64,000 nt of DNA from a virus. Of the stretch, positions 765-53,408 are shown one piece after another. The stretch is taken from the IMG/VR virus record IMGVR_UViG_3300023118_000001, positions 1 through 64,000 of that record; one strand, 5' to 3'. Below the pieces are notes generated by a model, which was given only the letters and a program-made list of their open reading frames with translations, had not been told where the DNA came from and did not search any database. A program made the translations under genes and the position numbers. How positions within the stretch are numbered: position 1 is the first letter of the stretch; every line of letters starts with the position of its first letter.

Positions 765-1240
765 GCCTGCGCTCCTCGAGTGAGACGGGACAGGGTTTGA
801 GTGAGGGCGCCTACCAGGCCGCTGGTGGCGTAGTTGTCCAGCTGCGGCAGTGGCACACCGGTCTGCTGCGCAATCCACTGCGGGAGCTGGCGCAGGGCGT
901 AGACGATGCCCGCGTCACCCTGCTCCTTGGCGTTTTGCAGGGCCATGTCCCACGCACCGGGGTTTTCGATCAGGTCGCTCATTTTCAGGCGGCGCACCGG
1001 CGTCTTGGCGGTGCTGCGCAGCGGGCGGAAGTTGTGGTGGGTTTCGCACCAGTCGCTGAGCTTGTTGACGGCCAACGCGGTGTGGATGGCACCGATGAAG
1101 GTGTGCACCGGGTGCTGACCGTTGAAGCGGTACACGCTGCAAGCGTAGATATTGGTCAGGCTGAGGGGCAGGTCGAGGTCGGCGGACAGGTCGACGTTTT
1201 GCGCTTTGATCGCGGCGGACAGGCGGCACATGATGGACAT
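761..1240 (-). CDS. hypothetical early protein
   Basis: SD TAAGGA upstream; 159-aa ORF coupled to the next gene. Confidence 0.8.
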   Translation of the reverse strand: MSIMCRLSAAIKAQNVDLSADLDLPLSLTNIYACSVYRFNGQHPVHTFIGAIHTALAVNKLSDWCETHHNFRPLRSTAKTPVRRLKMSDLIENPGAWDMALQNAKEQGDAGIVYALRQLPQWIAQQTGVPLPQLDNYATSGLVGALTQTLSRLTRGAQA

Positions 1241-1375
1241 GGTGGGTATTCCTTATTGCTGATTTATGGGAGAAATTCGTTGTGTAACAAATACTTATGG
1301 GAAAATTTCCGAAGTCTTTTCAGAGTTTGGAAGCTTTCCTATCGGTATTCGCTGACAGCGTAGACGGCGCGCGCG

Positions 1376-4612: not shown

Positions 4613-5348
4613 CGCGCTGACATCCCTGAACTTCATCCCCGAATCCGAGCCAGGCAAGGGCGACGGTCAGGGCTGGCGACTGAAGAAGGACGGCACCGTC
4701 GAGATCTGCGGTGCGTTCGTCAAGGGCACGCGGTTCAGTTACCGCTGCGAGGCTGGTGAGCAGGGCCAGGTACAGATCACTCCGGAGACCTGCACCGCTG
4801 AGGTAAAACCGACCTACAAATGCCCGGGCAATATGGACTGGAGCATCCTCGACCTCGAATGGGTGGCTGACCTCGGGGTGTTGCAGACCAAGGGCTTCGA
4901 CGGTGTGAAGCCAGGCTTTCGCATGGGCACACTGGAGGTGAGCGAACCCACTGCGCGGGCACGCGAAGCTTCCGAGATCGCACACATCATGGGTACGACC
5001 GGCGCGATCCTTAAAGAGGCCGAGACCCGCGCAAAGGCCGACAGGGCTGCGGTATCCATGAGAATAGAGATGCCTGGTGGAACTGTGACGCTGGGTAACC
5101 TGGCAGGCAGCATGCTCGAGGAGTTCAGCAACGACACCGCAGCCCTGGTCGCCAACGCCACCCAAAGCCTCGAGCAGCTGATCAGCCACCACAACCGGAT
5201 GATCATCGAGATGGAGAAGATCGAGGGCGGTAGCATCGACTTGCTGATCATGGCCAGCCAGCAATTTCGCATGGGCGAGGCGCTGCTGCGGGAACTGTTG
5301 CGCAAAGTTGACACACAAGATGTTGACGACGGCCACAAACCTCGCTAA
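4596..5348 (+). CDS. hypothetical protein with a gpJ C-terminal-like GWRLxKxG motif
   Basis: SD TAAGGA before ATG 4596; GWRLKKDGTVEI resembles GWRLTKAGVFEM in this phage's gpJ. Confidence 0.75.
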   Translation: MSNPNDALTSLNFIPESEPGKGDGQGWRLKKDGTVEICGAFVKGTRFSYRCEAGEQGQVQITPETCTAEVKPTYKCPGNMDWSILDLEWVADLGVLQTKGFDGVKPGFRMGTLEVSEPTARAREASEIAHIMGTTGAILKEAETRAKADRAAVSMRIEMPGGTVTLGNLAGSMLEEFSNDTAALVANATQSLEQLISHHNRMIIEMEKIEGGSIDLLIMASQQFRMGEALLRELLRKVDTQDVDDGHKPR

Positions 5349-5351
5349 ATT
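5323..5351 (+). promoter_or_regulatory. sigma70 promoter of the tRNA/ncRNA operon
   Basis: TTGACG-N17-TAAATT. Confidence 0.7.
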
Positions 5352-5418
5352 GCGGGCTCTGACGCTCAAGGGTTTGCGGGTTGTGGGTTGACCAGTCCAA
5401 GGATGGACACCAAAGTTT

Positions 5419-5494
5419 GGGGGAGTCGTCAAGCGGTTAAGACCCGGGGTTTTGAACCCCGTATGCGTTGGTTCGATCCCAACCTCCCCTTCCA
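5419..5494 (+). tRNA. tRNA-Gln (UUG)
   Basis: Acceptor GGGGGAG/CTCCCCT, D arm GTC..GAC, anticodon stem CGGGG/CCCCG with loop TT-TTG-AA, TTCGATC T loop, encoded CCA. Confidence 0.93.
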
Positions 5495-5498
5495 TAGT

Positions 5499-5570
5499 TC
5501 CAGGTTGAAAGCGCAAGCCAGTGCGAAAGGTTTCACCTAACCCCGGTAAGTCTGGCTCGGGGAACCTGGA
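5499..5570 (+). ncRNA. compact three-way-junction RNA with complementary loops
   Basis: P1 TCCAGGTT/AACCTGGA; hairpin CGCA-AGCCAG-TGCG; hairpin CCCCG..CGGGG whose loop contains CTGGCT. Confidence 0.6.
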
Positions 5571-5578
5571 CCGAACAT

Positions 5579-5654
5579 AGCGAAGTAGCTCAGTTGGCAG
5601 AGTAATCCCTTCATACGGGACTGGTCGGTGGTTCGATTCCACTCTTCGCTACCA
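5579..5654 (+). tRNA. tRNA with CAU anticodon (elongator Met or lysidine Ile2)
   Basis: Acceptor AGCGAAG/CTTCGCT, D arm GCTC/GAGT, loop TT-CAT-AC, TTCGATT T loop, ACCA end. Confidence 0.93.
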
Positions 5655-5659
5655 AACAC

Positions 5660-5895
5660 GCGCAGGCTGCTCCGTTTTCTTGCAAGTGCGGAGCGGTTAT
5701 GGAAGCCCGATAGGAAGTAGGCCTCGTAAGCCGAAATGTCGAATAGGCGCCAGGATGGCGGAAAAGCCCGGGGTCCAAAGGAAGCGTACCAAGTGCTGGG
5801 GATCAGGATGACGCGCAAGGGCTGATGGAACCGCGACGGAGTAGCTACCCGTCCGCCCCATCCTAAGTTGCGGGAATAAGCCTGATCACTGACAC
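5660..5895 (+). ncRNA. GGA-rich structured ncRNA (candidate Rsm/Csr-type sponge)
   Basis: No credible ORF; 11 GGA trinucleotides; several hairpins and a nested rod 5801-5887; lies between a tRNA and a terminator. Confidence 0.55.
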
Positions 5896-5898
5896 ACT

Positions 5899-5931
5899 GA
5901 AAGCCCGGTCATAGTGCCCGGGCTTTCTTTT
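5899..5931 (+). terminator. intrinsic terminator of the RNA operon
   Basis: GAAAGCCCGG..CCGGGCTTTC followed by TTTT. Confidence 0.85.
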
Positions 5932-6077
5932 GTCCGCAAACCCCGCTAACCTGCGAGTTATGTCGGCCCGTGACCCCGAGTACCTAATCCTCTATTGACC
6001 CACGGATAACGGCCACCAGGCTGTAACGGAGCAAGAAGCTCTCGCCGACGCCCAACTCAACGAACGGATTCCTTGCC

Positions 6078-6368
6078 ATGTCCCAGCCAACCGCCAACAT
6101 CCAGGACCTCATAGCCTTCGTCGCCGAGAACACCGGCTCGACCAAGGACGAGGCCAAGGTCTTCATCCATGCCACGCTGCATGGGATCAACCAACTGGTC
6201 AACGACCACAACAAGCTCACGCTGCGAGAGTTCGGCCGCTTCGAGCTGCGCTACCGCAAGGCGCGGATCAACAGCAAGCCGATCCAGGGCAAGCCGACGA
6301 CCATCCCGGCGCGAGAGCTGCTGCACTTCACGCCGAGCAAACTTCTGGCCAAAGAGGCGGACTACTGA
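6078..6368 (+). CDS. HU/IHF-family DNA-binding protein
   Basis: DLIAFVAENTGSTKDEA, LREFGRF, RKAR..P.QGKPTTIPAR..FTPSKLL match the HU fold pattern. Confidence 0.9.
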   Translation: MSQPTANIQDLIAFVAENTGSTKDEAKVFIHATLHGINQLVNDHNKLTLREFGRFELRYRKARINSKPIQGKPTTIPARELLHFTPSKLLAKEADY

Positions 6369-6997
6369 TGGCTACGCGCAGAACTGTCAAGGATATGATG
6401 GACGATCCGAACTACGACGCCCGCACGCTGGAGCACGTCGGGAAAGGGCCAGGCGTGCCGATCGCCGATGACCACCCGACTAAGTACCCGCCGATGGCCA
6501 GCCCGATCCCGGTCACCAGCATGGCCACGCTCAAGTACGCCGATCGCCCGCTGTACGAGGGCATCCAGTCGCTGCTGGTGAACCTCAAGCACGACATGCT
6601 GCCTGAGAACATCCAGATGGAGATCATCGAAGCGATGTCGCCGTCGTCCAAGCGCGCCCTGGTGCAGCAGATGGCTGGGCTCGATGCCTCGGTGCTGGTG
6701 ACGTTCAAGGCTCAGCTCAAGCTGATCGACGCCGTCTGCACCCGGGTGATCAACCCCGACGGCACGCCGCGCCTGAACCACGGTCTGGACATCAGCGTGA
6801 AGGACGCGCTGAATATGTCGATGAAGGTGATCGGCATGCTGGTCAAGGACTTGCCCAAGGTGCTGACCCTGTCCCGCGTGCAGCGCCTGGAAGACAGTCT
6901 GCTGGAGGTCGTGCACTCGCTGCCCAAGGACAAACAGGACGAGGTGCTGCTGCTCCTCGAGGAATCGGAACGCAAGGCCGCGAGGGAAGGGAAATGA
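6368..6997 (+). CDS. putative terminase small subunit
   Basis: Helical 209-aa protein upstream of TerL; the call is positional. Confidence 0.5.
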   Translation: MATRRTVKDMMDDPNYDARTLEHVGKGPGVPIADDHPTKYPPMASPIPVTSMATLKYADRPLYEGIQSLLVNLKHDMLPENIQMEIIEAMSPSSKRALVQQMAGLDASVLVTFKAQLKLIDAVCTRVINPDGTPRLNHGLDISVKDALNMSMKVIGMLVKDLPKVLTLSRVQRLEDSLLEVVHSLPKDKQDEVLLLLEESERKAAREGK

Positions 6998-7524
6998 GAT
7001 GGAATCCATTTGTGATGTACCGGGAACACGAGCAGCTGCAGACGACCTTCGACCAGGCTGTGAAGACCATCGAGGCGCTGTCTCGCCAGCTGCTGGCGCA
7101 CCAGACGTTGGTGGCGCGGGAGCTTCACACCCTGAAGTACGGCCGCCCTACCGCGCACTCTACCCTGGGGAACCCGCTCACCCCGGAGCAGGAAGAAATT
7201 GTCAAAGAGTTCAATGATAACAAGAGCTTACCTGAACAAATCCGACGTCATTTTGCACGCGGCGGGAAGTTTGAAAACCGGATAGCGGAGGGCCTGTTCG
7301 GCGAGGCAGGGTCGGATCACCAGACCCGCGCCATCGACCCTGCAGTATATGCGGCTGACCCTGAAGAGCCAGGCACCAAGGTCAACATCACGGTGCAGTT
7401 CGACGGCCAGACGCGGTCCGTGCAGGAGGTGTTCAGCGCCAGGGAGCGCAGCCAGTTTCTGGAAGACCAGTTCAAAGGCCTGGTGGCCGGCGCCGACGGC
7501 GTGGTAGTCAAACCCAAGGAGTAA
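6994..7524 (+). CDS. hypothetical protein in the packaging cluster
   Basis: ATGA-coupled 176-aa ORF. Confidence 0.7.
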   Translation: MRWNPFVMYREHEQLQTTFDQAVKTIEALSRQLLAHQTLVARELHTLKYGRPTAHSTLGNPLTPEQEEIVKEFNDNKSLPEQIRRHFARGGKFENRIAEGLFGEAGSDHQTRAIDPAVYAADPEEPGTKVNITVQFDGQTRSVQEVFSARERSQFLEDQFKGLVAGADGVVVKPKE

Positions 7525-9439: not shown

Positions 9440-10903
9440 ATGGCTGGCACCAAGACACCAGGTAGCAAAGGATCGAGGTACGCGGCAGCGAGTACCCAGG
9501 TTATTTTGCCGACCCGAAATCTTGCGGGTAAGGCGCGAGCCAAACGCCCAGGCTCAGACCTGAAGAAAGGCGATGCCATCACCAACACGCTGAAAAAGTT
9601 CAACCTGAACGCTATCAGCAACGTCAGCTCCCGAACCGATGTCAACGAAATCATCCGCCTGCTGTGCCGTGAGAACGGCATGTTCAGCTCGGCGGCGAAC
9701 TCGATGGCGGCCATCTCGGTGGGTACTGGCTTCAGATTGGCCGGCTATGACGCAACGGGGGCCATGAGCACCGAAGTCATGTCCGTGGCCTACAGCATCA
9801 TGGATCGATTCTCGACGCTGCATGATTACAGCAAGGGATACAACGATAAGCCAGGGATGCAATCGCTGCTGTCGACGCTTCAAACGGATGTCATCACAAC
9901 AGGAGGTTGTGGTGTTGAACTGGTGCTGGACAAGGAGTTCGGCCCCGAGCGGCTGGTGCCGATCGGTTACTCGACTGTTGAATGGGAGGCGGATGGCCAG
10001 GGAGGGCGTTATCCAACACAGGACGGCGGCGACATTGAGCTGAACATCCCCACCGTCTTCGTATCCGAGCACAACCGCAACGCCGACGAGGCGTATGCCA
10101 CCAGCCTGCTGCGTCCGGGCCTGTCCCAGGTGATGAACTTCGAAGGCTTTATCGAAGACATGCACCGGGCCCTGAACCGCACCGGCCACAGCCGCCTGAT
10201 CGCGACCATCATCGCTGACAAGATCAAGGCTGCCGCCGACGACACCATCAAGCACGACCCCAAGAAAATGGGTGAGTTGTTCGACCTGGTGCGCCAGCAG
10301 GTGATCGAGGCGCTGTCCGGCCTTGAGCCTGAAGACGCCGTGGTGACCTTTGACAGCGTGACCTACACGGTCGAGGACACCGGTGGCAACAAGGCCGACT
10401 ACGCGCCGATGGTAGCTGTGCTGGCCAACATGCTGGGGGCTTCGCTCAAGACGCCGGCTTCGGTCAGCGGCATGCGCGCATCGGGTGGCCAAGGCCTGTC
10501 CAACGCCGAGACCCTGATCTACCTGCAGGTCGTGCAAGGCACGCGCTCGCCGGTGGAGGAAGCGATGTCCCGCGCCCTGACCCTGGCCTGCCGCCTGCAA
10601 GGCATCGACGGCTACGTCGCCTTCGAATTCAACCCAATCAACCTGCGTCCAGACATCGAGCTGGAAGCGTATTTCGGCACCCGCCAAAAGCGTGTGCTCG
10701 AGCTGCTGAGCTGGGGTGTGATCAACGAGGCCCACGCTTGCTGGGAACTCGGCATCCGCCCACAAGGCCTGTCAGCTGTTCTGGCCGGCACCAAGTTCTA
10801 CGCCAAGGATGCTTCTGACGCGACCGCTACCGATCGCACCACGTCGTCAGGCGCGGCACTCACCCCCGACACCCCGGCTCAGTCCGGCGGTGCCGACAAA
10901 TAA
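9440..10903 (+). CDS. portal protein
   Basis: ~487 aa between TerL and the prohead protease; SD TAAGGA. Confidence 0.85.
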   Translation: MAGTKTPGSKGSRYAAASTQVILPTRNLAGKARAKRPGSDLKKGDAITNTLKKFNLNAISNVSSRTDVNEIIRLLCRENGMFSSAANSMAAISVGTGFRLAGYDATGAMSTEVMSVAYSIMDRFSTLHDYSKGYNDKPGMQSLLSTLQTDVITTGGCGVELVLDKEFGPERLVPIGYSTVEWEADGQGGRYPTQDGGDIELNIPTVFVSEHNRNADEAYATSLLRPGLSQVMNFEGFIEDMHRALNRTGHSRLIATIIADKIKAAADDTIKHDPKKMGELFDLVRQQVIEALSGLEPEDAVVTFDSVTYTVEDTGGNKADYAPMVAVLANMLGASLKTPASVSGMRASGGQGLSNAETLIYLQVVQGTRSPVEEAMSRALTLACRLQGIDGYVAFEFNPINLRPDIELEAYFGTRQKRVLELLSWGVINEAHACWELGIRPQGLSAVLAGTKFYAKDASDATATDRTTSSGAALTPDTPAQSGGADK

Positions 10904-40043: not shown

Positions 40044-40769
40044 CTAGGCGTGGGTCCAGTAGAACTGACCTTTCAGCCTCATGCCTTCCGGCGTGACGTA
40101 CTCCATGATGCCGTCGCGATCGCGCAAGTGTTGGGTACGCTGCGCCTTGACCACGATGTCTTCGTCGCAAACGGCGTCACCGGTGAAGCGGGTGCCGGCC
40201 GGGATCTTGATCAGCAGTGGGCTCTCCACCGGAGGCAGCGGGCTGCTTGGCGGGTTCCAGTGAGTCTCCTCGCCGGCGCCGTTCATCACTACCCTCACAC
40301 CGACTGACGTGGGCTCAGCAAGCTCCTCGATGAAGGCCAACTCAAGCACGCCGTCCTCAAGAATTCTGAACCGGCCTGTCGAGCAGCTCAGCGTCTTCGC
40401 AGCGTACCCGACGGCGCCATAGCTGTTGCGGGGTATACGAGCATAGCCAAAAGGCCTGCCAGGCTCCATGTCCTTGTTGGGGATGCCGGTGAAAACGATG
40501 TCGGGATAGACCACCCGCGCTGCGTAGTCCACGCCCTGCGAGATCAGGCGTTCAGAGCCTTCTTCGATCATCCGCAGTGCAACAACCTGAACCGCCTCGC
40601 ACACCAAAGGCTCCTTGCCGAACTTCTTCAGCTGCTCCAGCACATGGGTAACGCTGCGCTGCGAGGAGAGGTGCAACAACTCCTCCCGTAGCTGTTCCAG
40701 GTTCAACACCAGATAAGAGAGCGCTGTCAGGCGCTCCCGTTCCTGCTCCAGCGCATTGAAATCCATCAT
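40044..40769 (-). CDS. hypothetical protein
   Basis: 241-aa coupled ORF. Confidence 0.75.
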   Translation of the reverse strand: MMDFNALEQERERLTALSYLVLNLEQLREELLHLSSQRSVTHVLEQLKKFGKEPLVCEAVQVVALRMIEEGSERLISQGVDYAARVVYPDIVFTGIPNKDMEPGRPFGYARIPRNSYGAVGYAAKTLSCSTGRFRILEDGVLELAFIEELAEPTSVGVRVVMNGAGEETHWNPPSSPLPPVESPLLIKIPAGTRFTGDAVCDEDIVVKAQRTQHLRDRDGIMEYVTPEGMRLKGQFYWTHA

Positions 40770-40984
40770 GCGTCATCCTCCAGCATTGCCAACACTTCAA
40801 ACTCGACCTCGACGCCCTCGGCATGCTCCACCTTAAGCTCGCCGATGCCGCCAGGCATGGTGAAAACGTAACCGCCATCCGTGATCTTGCCCTTCACCTC
40901 GCGGCTGTGACCGCCAGGGGTGGTGAAGATGACAGTGGCACCGTCATTCCCTTTCCCGAGCTTTTCCAAGCTGATTTTCCACAT
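40766..40984 (-). CDS. hypothetical protein (72 aa)
   Basis: SD GAGGA; coupled to the next gene. Confidence 0.65.
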   Translation of the reverse strand: MWKISLEKLGKGNDGATVIFTTPGGHSREVKGKITDGGYVFTMPGGIGELKVEHAEGVEVEFEVLAMLEDDA

Positions 40985-49414: not shown

Positions 49415-49768
49415 TTATTCCTTACCGGTTGAGAAAAATTGTTTGTGAATGGCCGGCCAGCGGCGCCGGAACATCTCGACGCGGCGGGCCATCAGGCTTT
49501 CGTTGTGCTTGGCGTCCCGCAGCTGTTTACGCAGTTCCTCAAGTTCGTCTTCCAACTCCTTGACGTAGCTGTCGTTGTAGCTGCGATCCTCACAGCGTAA
49601 ATCCGCCGAGGTGCCGACGAAGAAAGGCTCGCCAGGCCGTTTGATCCCCATCGGGATCGCCTTGCCTGGCTCGATGGTGTTGACGGGGCCCTGGATGGGC
49701 GGATCAGGGAGGCTGCTGACAGCCTCCTTGAATTTCTCCCACCAGTCGTTAATCGGCGACGACTTCAA
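49415..49768 (-). CDS. hypothetical coiled-coil protein
   Basis: GAGGAGG then TTG start inside the 3' end of pol; start uncertain. Confidence 0.55.
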   Translation of the reverse strand: MKSSPINDWWEKFKEAVSSLPDPPIQGPVNTIEPGKAIPMGIKRPGEPFFVGTSADLRCEDRSYNDSYVKELEDELEELRKQLRDAKHNESLMARRVEMFRRRWPAIHKQFFSTGKE

Positions 49769-52700
49769 ACTCCACCTCCTCTTCCCCGTCTTCATCCATC
49801 TCGACATAACCCGCCTTGCGGATCGGATCGAACGGCTGCAGAAGGTCAACTTCCCAAATGCTGCGGGCTTCCTCAATGGAGCGAGCAACGAAGGCCTCGA
49901 CGTTTTCACGGCTGATGTTACGACCCAGCTCGTGCACTCTACCCCAGTCCGGCCCAATGGAGAACTCCGGTACTTGGCGGACTTTGTGCCCTGGCGGGGT
50001 CGACTCTTCCATGAAGCGGCCGACCTCTTGGCAGTAGTCGTACACGTCGTCCTTGTGAACCCAGGCCACCACTTCGTCGTAGATCGGAGCAAAGAACACC
50101 ATGTTCAGTCTGTCCATGATGCCGCTCTCGGCGATCCGGGTCAGCACGATGCGCAACATCTGCGCTGCAGTGCCCTGGATCGTCGCGTTGGTGCCCTGGC
50201 GGTGCTGACGGGCGACCTTGCCGCTGTCCTCGCTGAAGATGTCGTTGGTGGCGTGACGCTTGGTCCCGAAGGCTGTCAGCGTGAAGCCGTTCTTGGTCAT
50301 GAATTCGCCGGTCTCGGCCTGCCACGGACGAATCCGGGTGTACAGGTCGAAGGTGCCATCGAGCAGCTTCTTGGCTTCTTCCACCGGCACGATCAGGTTG
50401 CGAGACAGCGTGCCAGCGCCAGCGCCGTAGGCCATACCGAAGTTTACGGTCTTGGCCTTGCCGCGGATGGCGACGGTGATCTTGTTCAGCTTGTGGTCCG
50501 GGTCATCCTTGGCCTCGACGAAGTCCTCATAGGACATTTTCGCGATGCCGGAGCCTGTCATGCTGTGCAAGTCTTTCTCGTTGGCCGGGTCGTAGACCGA
50601 CATCATCACCGGATCGTTGGCGAGGTTCGCCATCAGCCGGATCTCTTGCCCGTTGAAGTCGATCGCCACGCAGACGTGGTCCGGGGTTGGCGGAATGAAG
50701 ATGGTCCGCATGACCTTGCCTTCGCCGCGCTTGGCCACCTGCAGGATGTTCATCGAGCTGCCAGTTGGCCGGGTGGTGTCGGTGCCTGCGTCGGTGATGA
50801 TCGGGTGGACCTTGCCGTCGCGGTGACGCCACATCGGGTACTTGACGTGGTACAGGCTGCAGCGGGTGTTGGCCGACTTCACTCGACGAAGGATGGTCAG
50901 CGCATCACGCTGCCAGCAGTCCTCTAGGACGTCGTTCGCCAGCGCCGTGAGGATAGCCTGCTCGTCGGTAGACGGGCCTGCTTCCTTGATGCCGACGGCC
51001 ATCCGGCCCTTACCCACCTGCTTGCCGCGCAGCTTGACCGGGATACCGATCTTGCAATACAGCAGGTGCTGCATCTGCACCGGGCTGCCGACGTTCAGCG
51101 GGTCGCCAAACGCCACGATGCTCGGCTTGATGCCGGCCGTGCGCTGCACCAGGTTGCCGAACTGCTCGTACAGCATCTCGGCCATGTCCACCTTCTTCCA
51201 GTCCAGGTCGTCCTGTGAAGCCTCGGCCTTCTTGCGCAGATCGGTGATCTTCATCGCGCCGCCGGTGACCGCCGAAGACATGAGCTTGACGAATTCACGC
51301 TGTGCATCATTGAGCGGCCATTCATCCTCGAAGCCCGCGCAGCCCGCCTCGTAGTACCACTCGCTGATCGCCTTCTGTGTCAGCTTCTCCAGAGGCGGCA
51401 GGCCCAGGGCTTCGATAGCCGGTGCCAGCTGCTTCTCGGTGAAAGCGAACGACGGCATGACCATCTCTTCTCGGTACGGGGTGTATTGGCAGGCTGCTTC
51501 CAGCTTCTTGCGCCACTCAGCGACCTTGGTGCCGGCCACTTCGGTGTCGCCGTCGGCCTTCTTCTTCGCCGAGCGGAAGATGTAATCCTTCTCGGCGTCG
51601 ATCAGCGTCTTGCAGCCCGCGGTGATGTTGCCGGTGACGTTCTTCTCCAGGATGGCGCGAAGCTCCAGCATGCCCTCCTCGATGGTCTTCAGGTCCTGGG
51701 CATGAATGCGCTTCTGCGCGGCCCAGTTCATGTCGACGCCGGCCACGTAGGCCCGCTGCAGCACCTCGGTAGGCTTCACAGCCCACCGCTGGTAGAAGTC
51801 CCACTGCCCGTCCAGCTTGAGCATCAGCTTCAGCAGGTCGTGCAGGTGACCGGTCACCAGGCTGTCGTCGGTGCCGTAGGTGAAGACTTCGTCAGCCGAC
51901 AGCTCACACATCATGCTGACGCCTTGGCCGTCGTTACCGGCTGCCAGGGTGTCCTGGAACGATGTCTGCTCATACGCCAGGTAGTTCAGGGAGATCGCCT
52001 TGAGGCCTGCCTCCATGTTCTCGTCGTAGAAGCGCTGCATCATCCGGGTGTCCTGGATGTCGGTCAGCCAGGTGTTCAGGTTGGTCTGCGTGACCACGCC
52101 TTCGAACAAAGCGTTGTGCGCCACCCGCTGGGTGTGCTTGCCGGCGAACTCAAGGATCTCCAGCACCACTGCCTTGTCCACGTTGTGCGAGTCGCGGTGA
52201 TCTACCGGGATGTAGATCACGTTTTCCAGGTGGCGGCCGAACTGGAACGAAGCGCCGGCCAGCTCCTGGCTGAGCATGTCGACGAAGGGGCCGGACTTGG
52301 CGATACGGAAATCGCGGATCGGGTCCTTGTCGGAGGATTCATAGTCGAACGCGGTGAGGTCGCCGGCCTTGATCTCGGCGAAGATCGCCTCCTTCATGTC
52401 TTCCCAATTGGTGGCGTCGACAATCATCGGCACCGGCATCAGGTGGCTGTACTCAGCGTCCCACATATCCTCGCAGCCGACTTCCTTCAGGCACTCGTAC
52501 AGCAGCGCCGGGTTCGGTACGCGCTTGTGGACCTTGGGCTTGACCAGCTTGCGCAGCCGTGGCTTCCAGCACAGTTCAGGCTTCAGGTTGGCCAGGCGCC
52601 AGCCCATCCGCCAGTCGCTGAACGCGTTGCGCAGCTTGATCAGATTCTTGTCGCCGGACGCTTCGATGGATTCGTCCAGCAGGTCAGTGTTACCGGTGTT

Positions 52701-53408
52701 GACTATCGCAGCCAGCTCGTCCAGGCCGTCGATGCCGACCGCCGCTGCCAGCTTGTGGATGGCTGCCGGGCCCATGCCCTTGACGCCGGAGTAGTTGTCC
52801 GAGCTGTCGCCGATGATCGACTTGATGAAGCTGGTCAGCCGGTAGGGCAAGCCTGCCAGGTCGTGACCTTCAGGGTAGACGCCGTCTTCGCCGCGCGGGG
52901 CGTAGTGGGCCACGCCCTTGATATGGACGATGGTGTCTTCGTCCACCAGCACCAGCATGTCTTCGTCGACGGTGTGGATGTCCTTCGGACCCTTGACCAT
53001 CTGGCAGATCCAGCCCATCAGGTCATCCGCTTCGACGCCGTCCACGAACATCTGTGTGGCGCCGATCGCGGAGAAAAACTTCTTCGCCCAAATCATCAGC
53101 TCTTTGTACTGAGCGATCTCGATAGGGCTTTTGTTCTTGTCGTCCTTGGACGCCTGGCCTTTGTACTCAGGGTAAATGCCCAGGCGGTAGGCCTTGCCAG
53201 CATCGTGGGCGACCAGCATTTCACGGGGAGAACCCCCACCCTCAAGGATGGGGCGAATGTAGCGGGTCAGAAAGTCCGCTGCACCGGCCTGCCAATCGGC
53301 AAACCGGCGATCGAGCTTCGCACAGTGCAGCGACTTGTCGCTGACACCGTAGTAGGCGTGCTTTACGCACGCCCTGAAGTCGATGATCTGAAGGGGTTGA
53401 TCGGCCAT
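49749..53408 (-). CDS. polA: family A DNA polymerase with N-terminal 5'-3' exonuclease and 3'-5' exonuclease
   Basis: YPEYKG, EADD, GDSSDNYSGVKGMG; DYES, HNALFE, YGTDD; DFNGQEIR, RGKAKTVNFGMAYG, IYDE. Confidence 0.93.
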   Translation of the reverse strand: MADQPLQIIDFRACVKHAYYGVSDKSLHCAKLDRRFADWQAGAADFLTRYIRPILEGGGSPREMLVAHDAGKAYRLGIYPEYKGQASKDDKNKSPIEIAQYKELMIWAKKFFSAIGATQMFVDGVEADDLMGWICQMVKGPKDIHTVDEDMLVLVDEDTIVHIKGVAHYAPRGEDGVYPEGHDLAGLPYRLTSFIKSIIGDSSDNYSGVKGMGPAAIHKLAAAVGIDGLDELAAIVNTGNTDLLDESIEASGDKNLIKLRNAFSDWRMGWRLANLKPELCWKPRLRKLVKPKVHKRVPNPALLYECLKEVGCEDMWDAEYSHLMPVPMIVDATNWEDMKEAIFAEIKAGDLTAFDYESSDKDPIRDFRIAKSGPFVDMLSQELAGASFQFGRHLENVIYIPVDHRDSHNVDKAVVLEILEFAGKHTQRVAHNALFEGVVTQTNLNTWLTDIQDTRMMQRFYDENMEAGLKAISLNYLAYEQTSFQDTLAAGNDGQGVSMMCELSADEVFTYGTDDSLVTGHLHDLLKLMLKLDGQWDFYQRWAVKPTEVLQRAYVAGVDMNWAAQKRIHAQDLKTIEEGMLELRAILEKNVTGNITAGCKTLIDAEKDYIFRSAKKKADGDTEVAGTKVAEWRKKLEAACQYTPYREEMVMPSFAFTEKQLAPAIEALGLPPLEKLTQKAISEWYYEAGCAGFEDEWPLNDAQREFVKLMSSAVTGGAMKITDLRKKAEASQDDLDWKKVDMAEMLYEQFGNLVQRTAGIKPSIVAFGDPLNVGSPVQMQHLLYCKIGIPVKLRGKQVGKGRMAVGIKEAGPSTDEQAILTALANDVLEDCWQRDALTILRRVKSANTRCSLYHVKYPMWRHRDGKVHPIITDAGTDTTRPTGSSMNILQVAKRGEGKVMRTIFIPPTPDHVCVAIDFNGQEIRLMANLANDPVMMSVYDPANEKDLHSMTGSGIAKMSYEDFVEAKDDPDHKLNKITVAIRGKAKTVNFGMAYGAGAGTLSRNLIVPVEEAKKLLDGTFDLYTRIRPWQAETGEFMTKNGFTLTAFGTKRHATNDIFSEDSGKVARQHRQGTNATIQGTAAQMLRIVLTRIAESGIMDRLNMVFFAPIYDEVVAWVHKDDVYDYCQEVGRFMEESTPPGHKVRQVPEFSIGPDWGRVHELGRNISRENVEAFVARSIEEARSIWEVDLLQPFDPIRKAGYVEMDEDGEEEVEFEVVAD

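Follow-up and report, generated by a model that had tools for sequence, protein, structure and literature searches.

Positions 5660-5895 of the viral DNA analysed here, a 64,000-nucleotide (nt) stretch that we call the window, are the 3' half of a non-coding operon of about 570 nt that also carries two transfer RNAs (tRNAs). Comparison with related sequences shows that this half comprises two folded RNA modules, each inherited independently of the other. IMG/VR virus record IMGVR_UViG_3300023118_000001, whose first 64 kb are the window, has 87,406 bp and direct terminal repeats, and its source is an 87-kb Pseudomonas-type phage. The core of the first module, block A (~90 nt), belongs to an uncatalogued family of three-way-junction RNAs, and it displays a hairpin of the type recognised by regulators of the CsrA family, such as RsmA and RsmE. 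A sequence-only reading had taken the 11 GGA motifs of the stretch for those of a viral mimic of the Rsm small RNAs, a sponge for RsmA/CsrA; the feature is indeed real and uncatalogued, and that reading is partly supported, being right on one type of hairpin and wrong on architecture and count. On present sequence evidence we regard low-valency docking of RsmA/RsmE, or a decoy role towards them, as the most likely single mechanism, plausible if well short of probable, with another partner about as likely.

Annotation usually treats phage tRNA clusters as tRNAs and filler. In this operon that filler consists of exchangeable folded RNA genes, one of which belongs to a family that is spread across phage lineages and has no Rfam match. 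If the AGGAU/AAGGAU hairpins do dock RsmA/CsrA, viruses would be targeting with RNA the Csr/Rsm switch, which controls motility, biofilm formation, secretion and central carbon flow. The idea can be tested in two cultured phages: Lana with its block A, and PMBT3 with module B and a plain AAGGAU hairpin. The elements on which the argument turns are the following.

5395-5408, + strand: leader hairpin GUCC-AAGGAU-GGAC then ACCA, outside the studied stretch and in the same predicted transcript
5579-5654, + strand: tRNA-Met(CAT) with encoded CCA (ARAGORN, Rfam)
5656-5797, + strand: module A', comprising helix P0, a 5' hairpin and block A, held as one piece in other contigs
5699-5783, + strand: block A core, modelled as a three-way junction (alignment, compensatory changes)
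5748-5760, + strand: P3 hairpin CGCC-AGGAU-GGCG, the only CsrB/RsmE-type hairpin within 5660-5895
5780-5782, + strand: single-stranded GGA in the 3' tail of block A, CCAA-N-GGA
5801-5887, + strand: module B, a stem-closed 'rod' with an internal-loop GGA at 5873 (alignment of relatives)
5900-5932, + strand: intrinsic terminator, stem 5900-5927 then a U run (fold)

Two modules inherited apart

Eight related operons, located via the HU-like gene next to them, were compared: those of the window, of the Pseudomonas phages PMBT3 (Maxrubnervirus) and Lana (Lanavirus), which are the closest named relatives at the locus, and of five distinct IMG/VR relatives. All eight start with tRNA-Gln, continue with varying tRNAs and non-tRNA pieces, and end in a common terminator. 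Lana and the relative L007 have a counterpart of 5692-5798 (block A) and nothing like 5801-5887; conversely, a relative of 5801-5887 (module B) is present in PMBT3 and L005, which lack block A. Contigs from three of four further public runs follow the window from 5656 to 5796, 5800 or 5817 at 98-99% identity with both flanks different, and in one of them 124 other letters stand in place of module B. Because the pieces are inherited separately across relatives and contigs, the stretch takes in two units, which are module A' at 5656-5797 and module B at 5801-5887, and a mimic of an Rsm RNA that forms one molecule is not what it encodes. The slot filled by module A' (5' hairpin and block A) in the window and in contig X3 is occupied in PMBT3 by a plain GGAG-AAGGAU-CUCC-ACC hairpin (L001 2830-2843), set between ACAC and ACC-CGAGUGC, and contig X3 itself joins PMBT3-like upstream sequence to a window-like module A'.

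Module B is common only to the window, PMBT3 and L005, and the one true match among the four returned by a pattern scan was again the L005 contig. Two positions of its 7-bp outer stem have three different Watson-Crick pairs each among the three sequences; an asymmetric internal loop and an inner stem are likewise common to all three. The window's version folds better than its shuffles (z = -2.29). GGA 5873 is kept in all three.

As to cargo, the tRNA sets in L001, L002 and L005-L009 are Gln only, Gln-Met, Pro-Gln-Met, Gln-Met-Asp, Gln-Trp and Gln-Trp-His-Met, each including tRNA-Gln, and tRNAs and folded non-tRNA modules appear interchangeable.

A three-way-junction RNA family and its hairpins

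The helices of module A' and of the block A model are listed below.

5660-5663/5784-5787, + strand: P0 closing helix, then ACCA (minimum free energy folds of the window, Lana and L007)
5665-5698, + strand: 5' hairpin of module A'
5700-5703/5774-5777 and 5706-5707/5772-5773, + strand: P1 (block A model)
5708-5712/5737-5741, + strand: P2, with the loop-E-like GGAAGUA (5713-5719)/GAAA (5733-5736) (block A model)
5720-5722/5730-5732, + strand: P2a (block A model)
5748-5751/5757-5760, + strand: P3 (block A model)

An alignment of six block A sequences has 107 columns, 68 of them invariant. In the model 18 pairs are 100% paired, four pairs have changed on both sides, and the covariation score was reached by none of 500 shuffles; slid controls were 21-40% paired. 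Contig X7 adds a compensatory flip in P2a (G5720C with C5732G). Since P2 is invariant, the alternative fold that RNAalifold gives for its region stands beside the three-way-junction model. The GGAAGUA/GAAA loop resembles what we take to be the bulged-G (loop E) motif, AGUA/GAA. The outer helix closes the 5' hairpin and block A in three Lana-like phages, with ACCA next in the window and L007.

Pattern scans recovered three members of the family outside the Lana-like phages. One of them, in the Jedunavirus-like contig L014, lies just after the primase-helicase gene. The others, in the lambda-like siphovirus contigs L016 and L017, have a methyltransferase gene on one side and HK97-gp10-like and tail-completion genes on the other. 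tRNAs are absent from the neighbourhood of all three, and each copy has its own terminator-like hairpin after it. At these loci, 5168-5337 (-) of L014, 2522-2691 (-) of L016 and 1159-1328 (-) of L017, a shared 5' domain of ~45 nt (a CUGAUUU...AAUUGG hairpin) precedes block A, and the flanking genes of L014 are unrelated to those of L016/L017 despite this common domain. Block A thus seems to travel as a cassette among unrelated phages, as far as its sequence contexts indicate. Named Jedunaviruses have no room for it at the insertion place of L014, and a scan for sigma-70-type promoters flagged none upstream of it in L014 and L016.

The block A model R1 gives the window 123.9 bits, the window being one of its training sequences. 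It finds a single copy in the window's own genome, and in a search of 17 sources it matched only its six training sequences. An exact two-part pattern run against 185,579 species genomes gave four matches, all judged chance; searches of E. coli genomes and plasmids gave none, and among phage GenBank records only Lana was found. Rfam searches of 5300-6100 and 5690-5800 at E<=10 led to acceptance of no RsmY, RsmZ, RsmX, CsrB or other non-tRNA family, and in nine related loci at E<=0.05 all 15 of 15 matches were tRNA. The best non-tRNA match, Methylosinus-1, was rejected, as its 19.1 bits fall far below the gathering score of 145.1 and it runs through tRNA-Met. Given the absence of an Rfam match, the stretch is not RsmY, RsmZ, RsmX or CsrB.

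Other identities were considered and rejected. A coding role finds only short chance open reading frames (ORFs) of 30-55 amino acids (aa) and a 93-aa minus-strand frame that runs through a tRNA, and the changes among relatives are compensatory; the sequence-only reading was right that the stretch is non-coding and lies between a tRNA, here tRNA-Met(CAT), and a terminator hairpin. For a riboswitch, the genes downstream vary by lineage, module B intervenes before the terminator in the window, and no conserved antiterminator pairing was apparent by eye. Hammerhead and other ribozymes were set aside in view of the lack of an Rfam match and of the GGAAGUA/GAAA loop, which joins P2 straight to P2a and has no third helix.

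The likeness to RsmA sites lies in two invariant elements of block A and in the leader hairpin. The CsrB repeat is CAGGA(U/A/C)G, and a high-affinity RsmE/CsrA target is (A/U)CANGGANG(U/A) with the loop closed by C-G, the consensus from systematic evolution of ligands by exponential enrichment (SELEX) being RUACARGGAUGU. P3 has the pentaloop AGGAY in six of six sequences, closed by C-G in four and U-A in two, and is a pentaloop version of such a target. Its loop GGA is invariant (6/6), although a C-G pair of the stem becomes U-A in L016 and L017 and the loop reads AGGAC in L017; in the constrained fold the loop stays unpaired. The GGA at 5780, also invariant in all six, is unpaired with a probability of 0.94-1.0 and lies 27 nt 3' of the P3 hairpin. 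We take C-AGGAU-G of P3 to equal the CsrB repeat, and the spacing of the tail GGA presumably falls within that for one CsrA dimer.

The leader hairpin reads C-A-A-G-G-A-U-G at its loop. In the aligned hairpins a closing C-G and a loop A-N-G-G-A-N occur in eight of eight, the stems are paired in 92.5% of cells with 12 cells changed on both sides, and none of 500 shuffles reaches the covariation score; the alignment was anchored on the loop motif, and its L008 entry is a hairpin of the His-Met spacer, not of the leader. The loop is AAGGAU apart from ACGGAA in PMBT3 and AAGGAA in L005, and the L009 hairpin reads ACAAGGAUGU. The copies lie as follows.

L001, 2376-2393: leader hairpin
L002, 2339-2356: leader hairpin
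L005, 2505-2522: leader hairpin
L006, 2551-2568: leader hairpin
L007, 2481-2498: leader hairpin
L008, 838-855: hairpin of the His-Met spacer
L009, 2624-2641: leader hairpin

Counting hairpins of at least four pairs in the non-tRNA RNA of the eight operons, we found 13 with A(N)GGA(N) loops against 0.35 +/- 0.6 expected from 2000 shuffles, and two in the window's genome against 0.053 expected from real background. They are not all homologous. The combination that marks an RsmE/CsrA-type hairpin, an A(N)GGA(N) loop with a closing C-G on a covarying stem, is therefore present, and since all eight operons have one or two hairpins with such loops, a low-valency role in docking or decoying RsmA/CsrA is plausible.

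A further hairpin of this kind, CCUC-AAGGAU-GGGG at 53240-53253 (+), lies antisense within a 1219-aa minus-strand ORF (49749-53408) and is taken as chance.

What the modules may bind

We suggest that the block A hairpin and tail, together with the C-AAGGAU-G leader hairpin, dock host RsmA/RsmE, such that each abundant phage transcript would hold one or two RsmA dimers and act as a low-valency decoy, or would exploit RsmA for its own stability. The modules could be cut free by tRNA-processing enzymes: module A' begins one base past the tRNA CCA, and it ends in a helix then ACCA. The named relatives of all three block A lineages infect gamma-proteobacteria, hosts that carry CsrA/RsmA, and no CsrA-like gene was found in the phage itself. 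A more doubtful proposition is that block A is the first virus-borne Csr/Rsm decoy, a portable cassette of ~90-145 nt with a fold unlike RsmY/RsmZ/CsrB. Unrelated phages of gamma-proteobacteria would insert it into tRNA operons or between genes, and during infection it would act with the leader hairpin to trap the host's global translational repressor. A full-text literature search found no phage-encoded Csr/Rsm decoy RNA.

The GGA motifs themselves, on which the sponge proposal had been built, are all present within 5660-5895, as are the heptamers ATGGAAG, TAGGAAG and AAGGAAG, CAGGATG twice (at 5751 and 5804) and the CGCC-AGGAT-GGCG hairpin. Their places are as follows.

GGA 5690: paired, 5' hairpin; not conserved
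GGA 5701: paired, P1; GGG in 3/6
GGA 5713: loop-E-like loop; invariant
GGA 5753: P3 loop; invariant
GGA 5760: last P3 pair and junction; invariant
GGA 5780: single-stranded tail; invariant
GGA 5800: module B closing stem
GGA 5806: module B closing stem
GGA 5827: GG paired
GGA 5838: GG paired
GGA 5873: internal loop; kept 3/3

This tally weighs against a single ~240-nt sponge of the RsmY/RsmZ/CsrB kind with most of the 11 GGAs serving to titrate RsmA, a reading that we now consider very improbable. That reading draws on a GGA density of 4.7 per 100 nt, above that of dinucleotide shuffles (n = 2000; 5.9 +/- 1.8 GGA, with 11 reached by 0.6%, P 0.006), on the two CAGGAUG copies and on the 3' terminator. 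The density is unusual, not unique, and moderately above chance. Segments of 236 nt that reach 11 GGA make up 0.29% of all, and 11-12 GGA per 236 nt recur at 6755-7124 (+), 9786-10037 (+) and 40527-40970 (-), which are regions of long ORFs, so that density alone is no marker of an RNA gene. The window's whole operon has a GGA excess over shuffles (P 0.012), and the pool of the eight operons has 62 GGA against 49.4 expected, an excess due to the window and to homologous pieces that the operons share. In the covariation-supported folds three of the 11 are fully unpaired (5713, 5753, 5780), two partly so (5760, 5873) and six have GG paired, and just one sits in a simple hairpin loop, far from the many displayed GGAs of a sponge. 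What remains of the Rsm-type display is an invariant CsrB/RsmE-type hairpin together with one single-stranded GGA that is likewise invariant. The second CAGGAUG has its CAGG inside the covarying closing stem of module B, where L005 has GGU. Four GGAs of block A are invariant (6/6). Most of the motifs derive from purine-rich loops and stems and are not equivalent binding sites. Added to this are the separate inheritance of the modules, the absence of any Rsm/Csr match at E<=10, relatives without a GGA excess, and a search for GacA-box-like palindromic sites (up to 3 mismatches) that gave six matches in the window against a shuffle mean of 10.6, none near 5300-5400.

Several observations also weigh against RsmA/RsmE docking in its low-valency form. 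The valency is far below that of RsmY/RsmZ/CsrB. No GGA excess over dinucleotide shuffles was found in any of the relatives' operons (7/7; P 0.23-0.72), and the 13 hairpins are inflated by shared ancestry, with ~4-5 independent elements behind them. In the modelled folds only three of 11 GGAs are fully exposed, one of these in a probably structured loop-E-like internal loop. Unpaired positions are 69% purine (C 17, U 15 of 102), from which GGA is to be expected by composition, and purine-rich, C-poor unpaired parts are what an untranslated transcript would show if it avoids Rho loading. Nor is folding more stable than that of shuffles: the stretch as a whole has z = -0.86, and module A' has values of +0.26 to +2.58 in five phages. 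The invariance of the block A junction strands (AAUAGG, GAAAAGC, GGAAGUA) exceeds what an RsmA site needs and points to another partner or a tertiary fold, and ACC follows the hairpins in 6-7 of 9 cases, a feature outside the RsmE/CsrA consensus.

Alternatively, the modules may act as decoys or ligands of some factor that is not RsmA, for instance a defence protein or nuclease of the host, an enzyme of RNA processing or a phage RNA-binding protein, with the AGGAU/AAGGAU loops forming part of a larger recognition surface; we hold this possibility tentatively. The ~68 invariant columns of 107, junction strands included, the conserved ACC and the behaviour of block A as an accessory cassette at unrelated places in three phage lineages all fit such a factor, and a stability no higher than that of shuffles is expected if tertiary or protein contacts hold the RNA. 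However, no candidate partner was found, whether a CsrA-like phage gene or a constant neighbour, the flanking genes varying by lineage, and loop and closing pair fit the known RsmE/CsrA consensus without further assumption. A role in cis is unlikely. The modules would then serve as RNase P/RNase E punctuation, as protection from exonucleases or in keeping the transcript free of Rho-loading C-rich strands, with the abundance of GGA a side effect of loops rich in purine and poor in C. The purine bias and the ratio of 62 GGA to 19 TCC over the eight operons agree with this, as do the filling by modules of slots where relatives have further tRNAs, the ACCA after the helix of module A' in the window and L007 and the ACC(A) after the leader hairpin; helix plus ACCA resembles, as we assume, the acceptor end read by RNase P. 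Block A nonetheless occurs far from tRNAs and with its own terminator in L014, L016 and L017, and a mere spacer would not retain ~68 invariant columns or an invariant hexaloop in eight phages.

Hardly to be expected, finally, is a Shine-Dalgarno mimicry by which the AAGGAU/AGGAU loops would pair with the 16S rRNA 3' end and bring the RNA or a tRNA precursor to the 30S subunit. AAGGA is complementary to UCCUU at that 3' end. In the different Pseudomonas phage phiKZ, phage tRNAs are reported in 30S fractions by Grad-seq (PMC8545117). Yet the sixth loop base is U in six of eight and A in two, never the G that would extend pairing, the pentamer lies inside a closed loop of 5-6 nt, and no conserved start codon follows. 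The phiKZ study also reports two non-coding RNA candidates and gives no Rsm link for phage RNAs (PMC8545117).

Relation to known RNAs and operon setting

The phage RNA can be compared with the cellular sponges, RsmY/RsmZ/RsmX of Pseudomonas and CsrB of enterobacteria (Rfam RF00195, RF00166, RF00018). Like them it is a non-coding RNA with an intrinsic terminator, a loop GGA and a single-stranded GGA nearby, in a host range with CsrA-family proteins. The sponges have from five to twenty-odd sites, whereas the phage RNA has one or two good ones, matches none of them in sequence or structure, and embeds its sites in a three-way junction with invariant junction strands. It is, moreover, apparently co-transcribed with tRNAs from a phage promoter rather than being GacA/UvrY-dependent, and is virus-borne and portable. 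The leader and P3 hairpins resemble RsmE/CsrA target hairpins, the closing C-G of the former being kept in eight of eight. In contrast to those targets, they are followed by a conserved ACC and are not at a ribosome-binding site, so that nothing is repressed in cis.

Among phage RNAs, the nearest parallel in description is with RNAs C and D of phage T4 (rnaC/rnaD, species 1 and 2), small stable RNAs in its tRNA cluster. Both cases involve folded non-tRNA RNAs inside a phage tRNA operon, presumably freed by tRNA-processing enzymes; block A, unlike the T4 RNAs, also occurs outside tRNA operons, the comparison being one of descriptions only. The E. coli small RNAs rrA/rrB/rrF derive from rRNA operon ends and are reported to bind or otherwise contact CsrA in vitro (PMC8144298). 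As presented there, they too are the tail of a stable-RNA operon before its final terminator, but they are cellular and belong to rRNA operons, an analogy rather than a relative.

The remaining elements of the operon are these.

5323-5351, + strand: sigma-70-type promoter-like site TTGACG-17-TAAATT (promoter scan)
5419-5494, + strand: tRNA-Gln(TTG) (ARAGORN, Rfam)
5495-5578, + strand: module C, folded spacer separating the two tRNAs (conservation in relatives)

The order is promoter, leader, tRNA-Gln, module C, tRNA-Met, module A', module B and terminator. The tRNAs and the GGA stretch share one strand, a single promoter-like site and a single terminator, and appear to form one transcription unit. 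A search of public sequencing runs yielded no RNA data set with the stretch, the one run labelled RNA-Seq (X14) being probably DNA. ARAGORN and Rfam at gathering thresholds found no RNA in the whole window beyond tRNA-Gln and tRNA-Met. The -35/-10 arrangement is kept in the leaders of seven of eight relatives, and contigs of other phages share 5322/5341-5361 and differ from 5361 on; transcription probably starts near 5358-5361, from a promoter whose sequence looks constitutive and of the sigma-70 type. Both ends of module C recur in the Gln-Met spacer of PMBT3, around an insert there of ~40 nt, and a similar 5' part follows tRNA-Gln in L009.

A simple terminator scanner left the hairpin at 5900-5927 unflagged; its stem has different sequences that are still paired in PMBT3, Lana and L005-L009, with TTTCTTTT next in all. 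The next gene, at 6078-6368, encodes the HU-like DNA-binding protein (Pfam PF00216) and has its own conserved upstream region. The interval from the terminator to this gene, 5933-6077, is highly conserved in all eight relatives and contains CCCGCTAAYCTGCGAG, a sequence similar to the -10 region of the tRNA operon's promoter, CCTCGCTAAATTGCGGG (~5341-5357).

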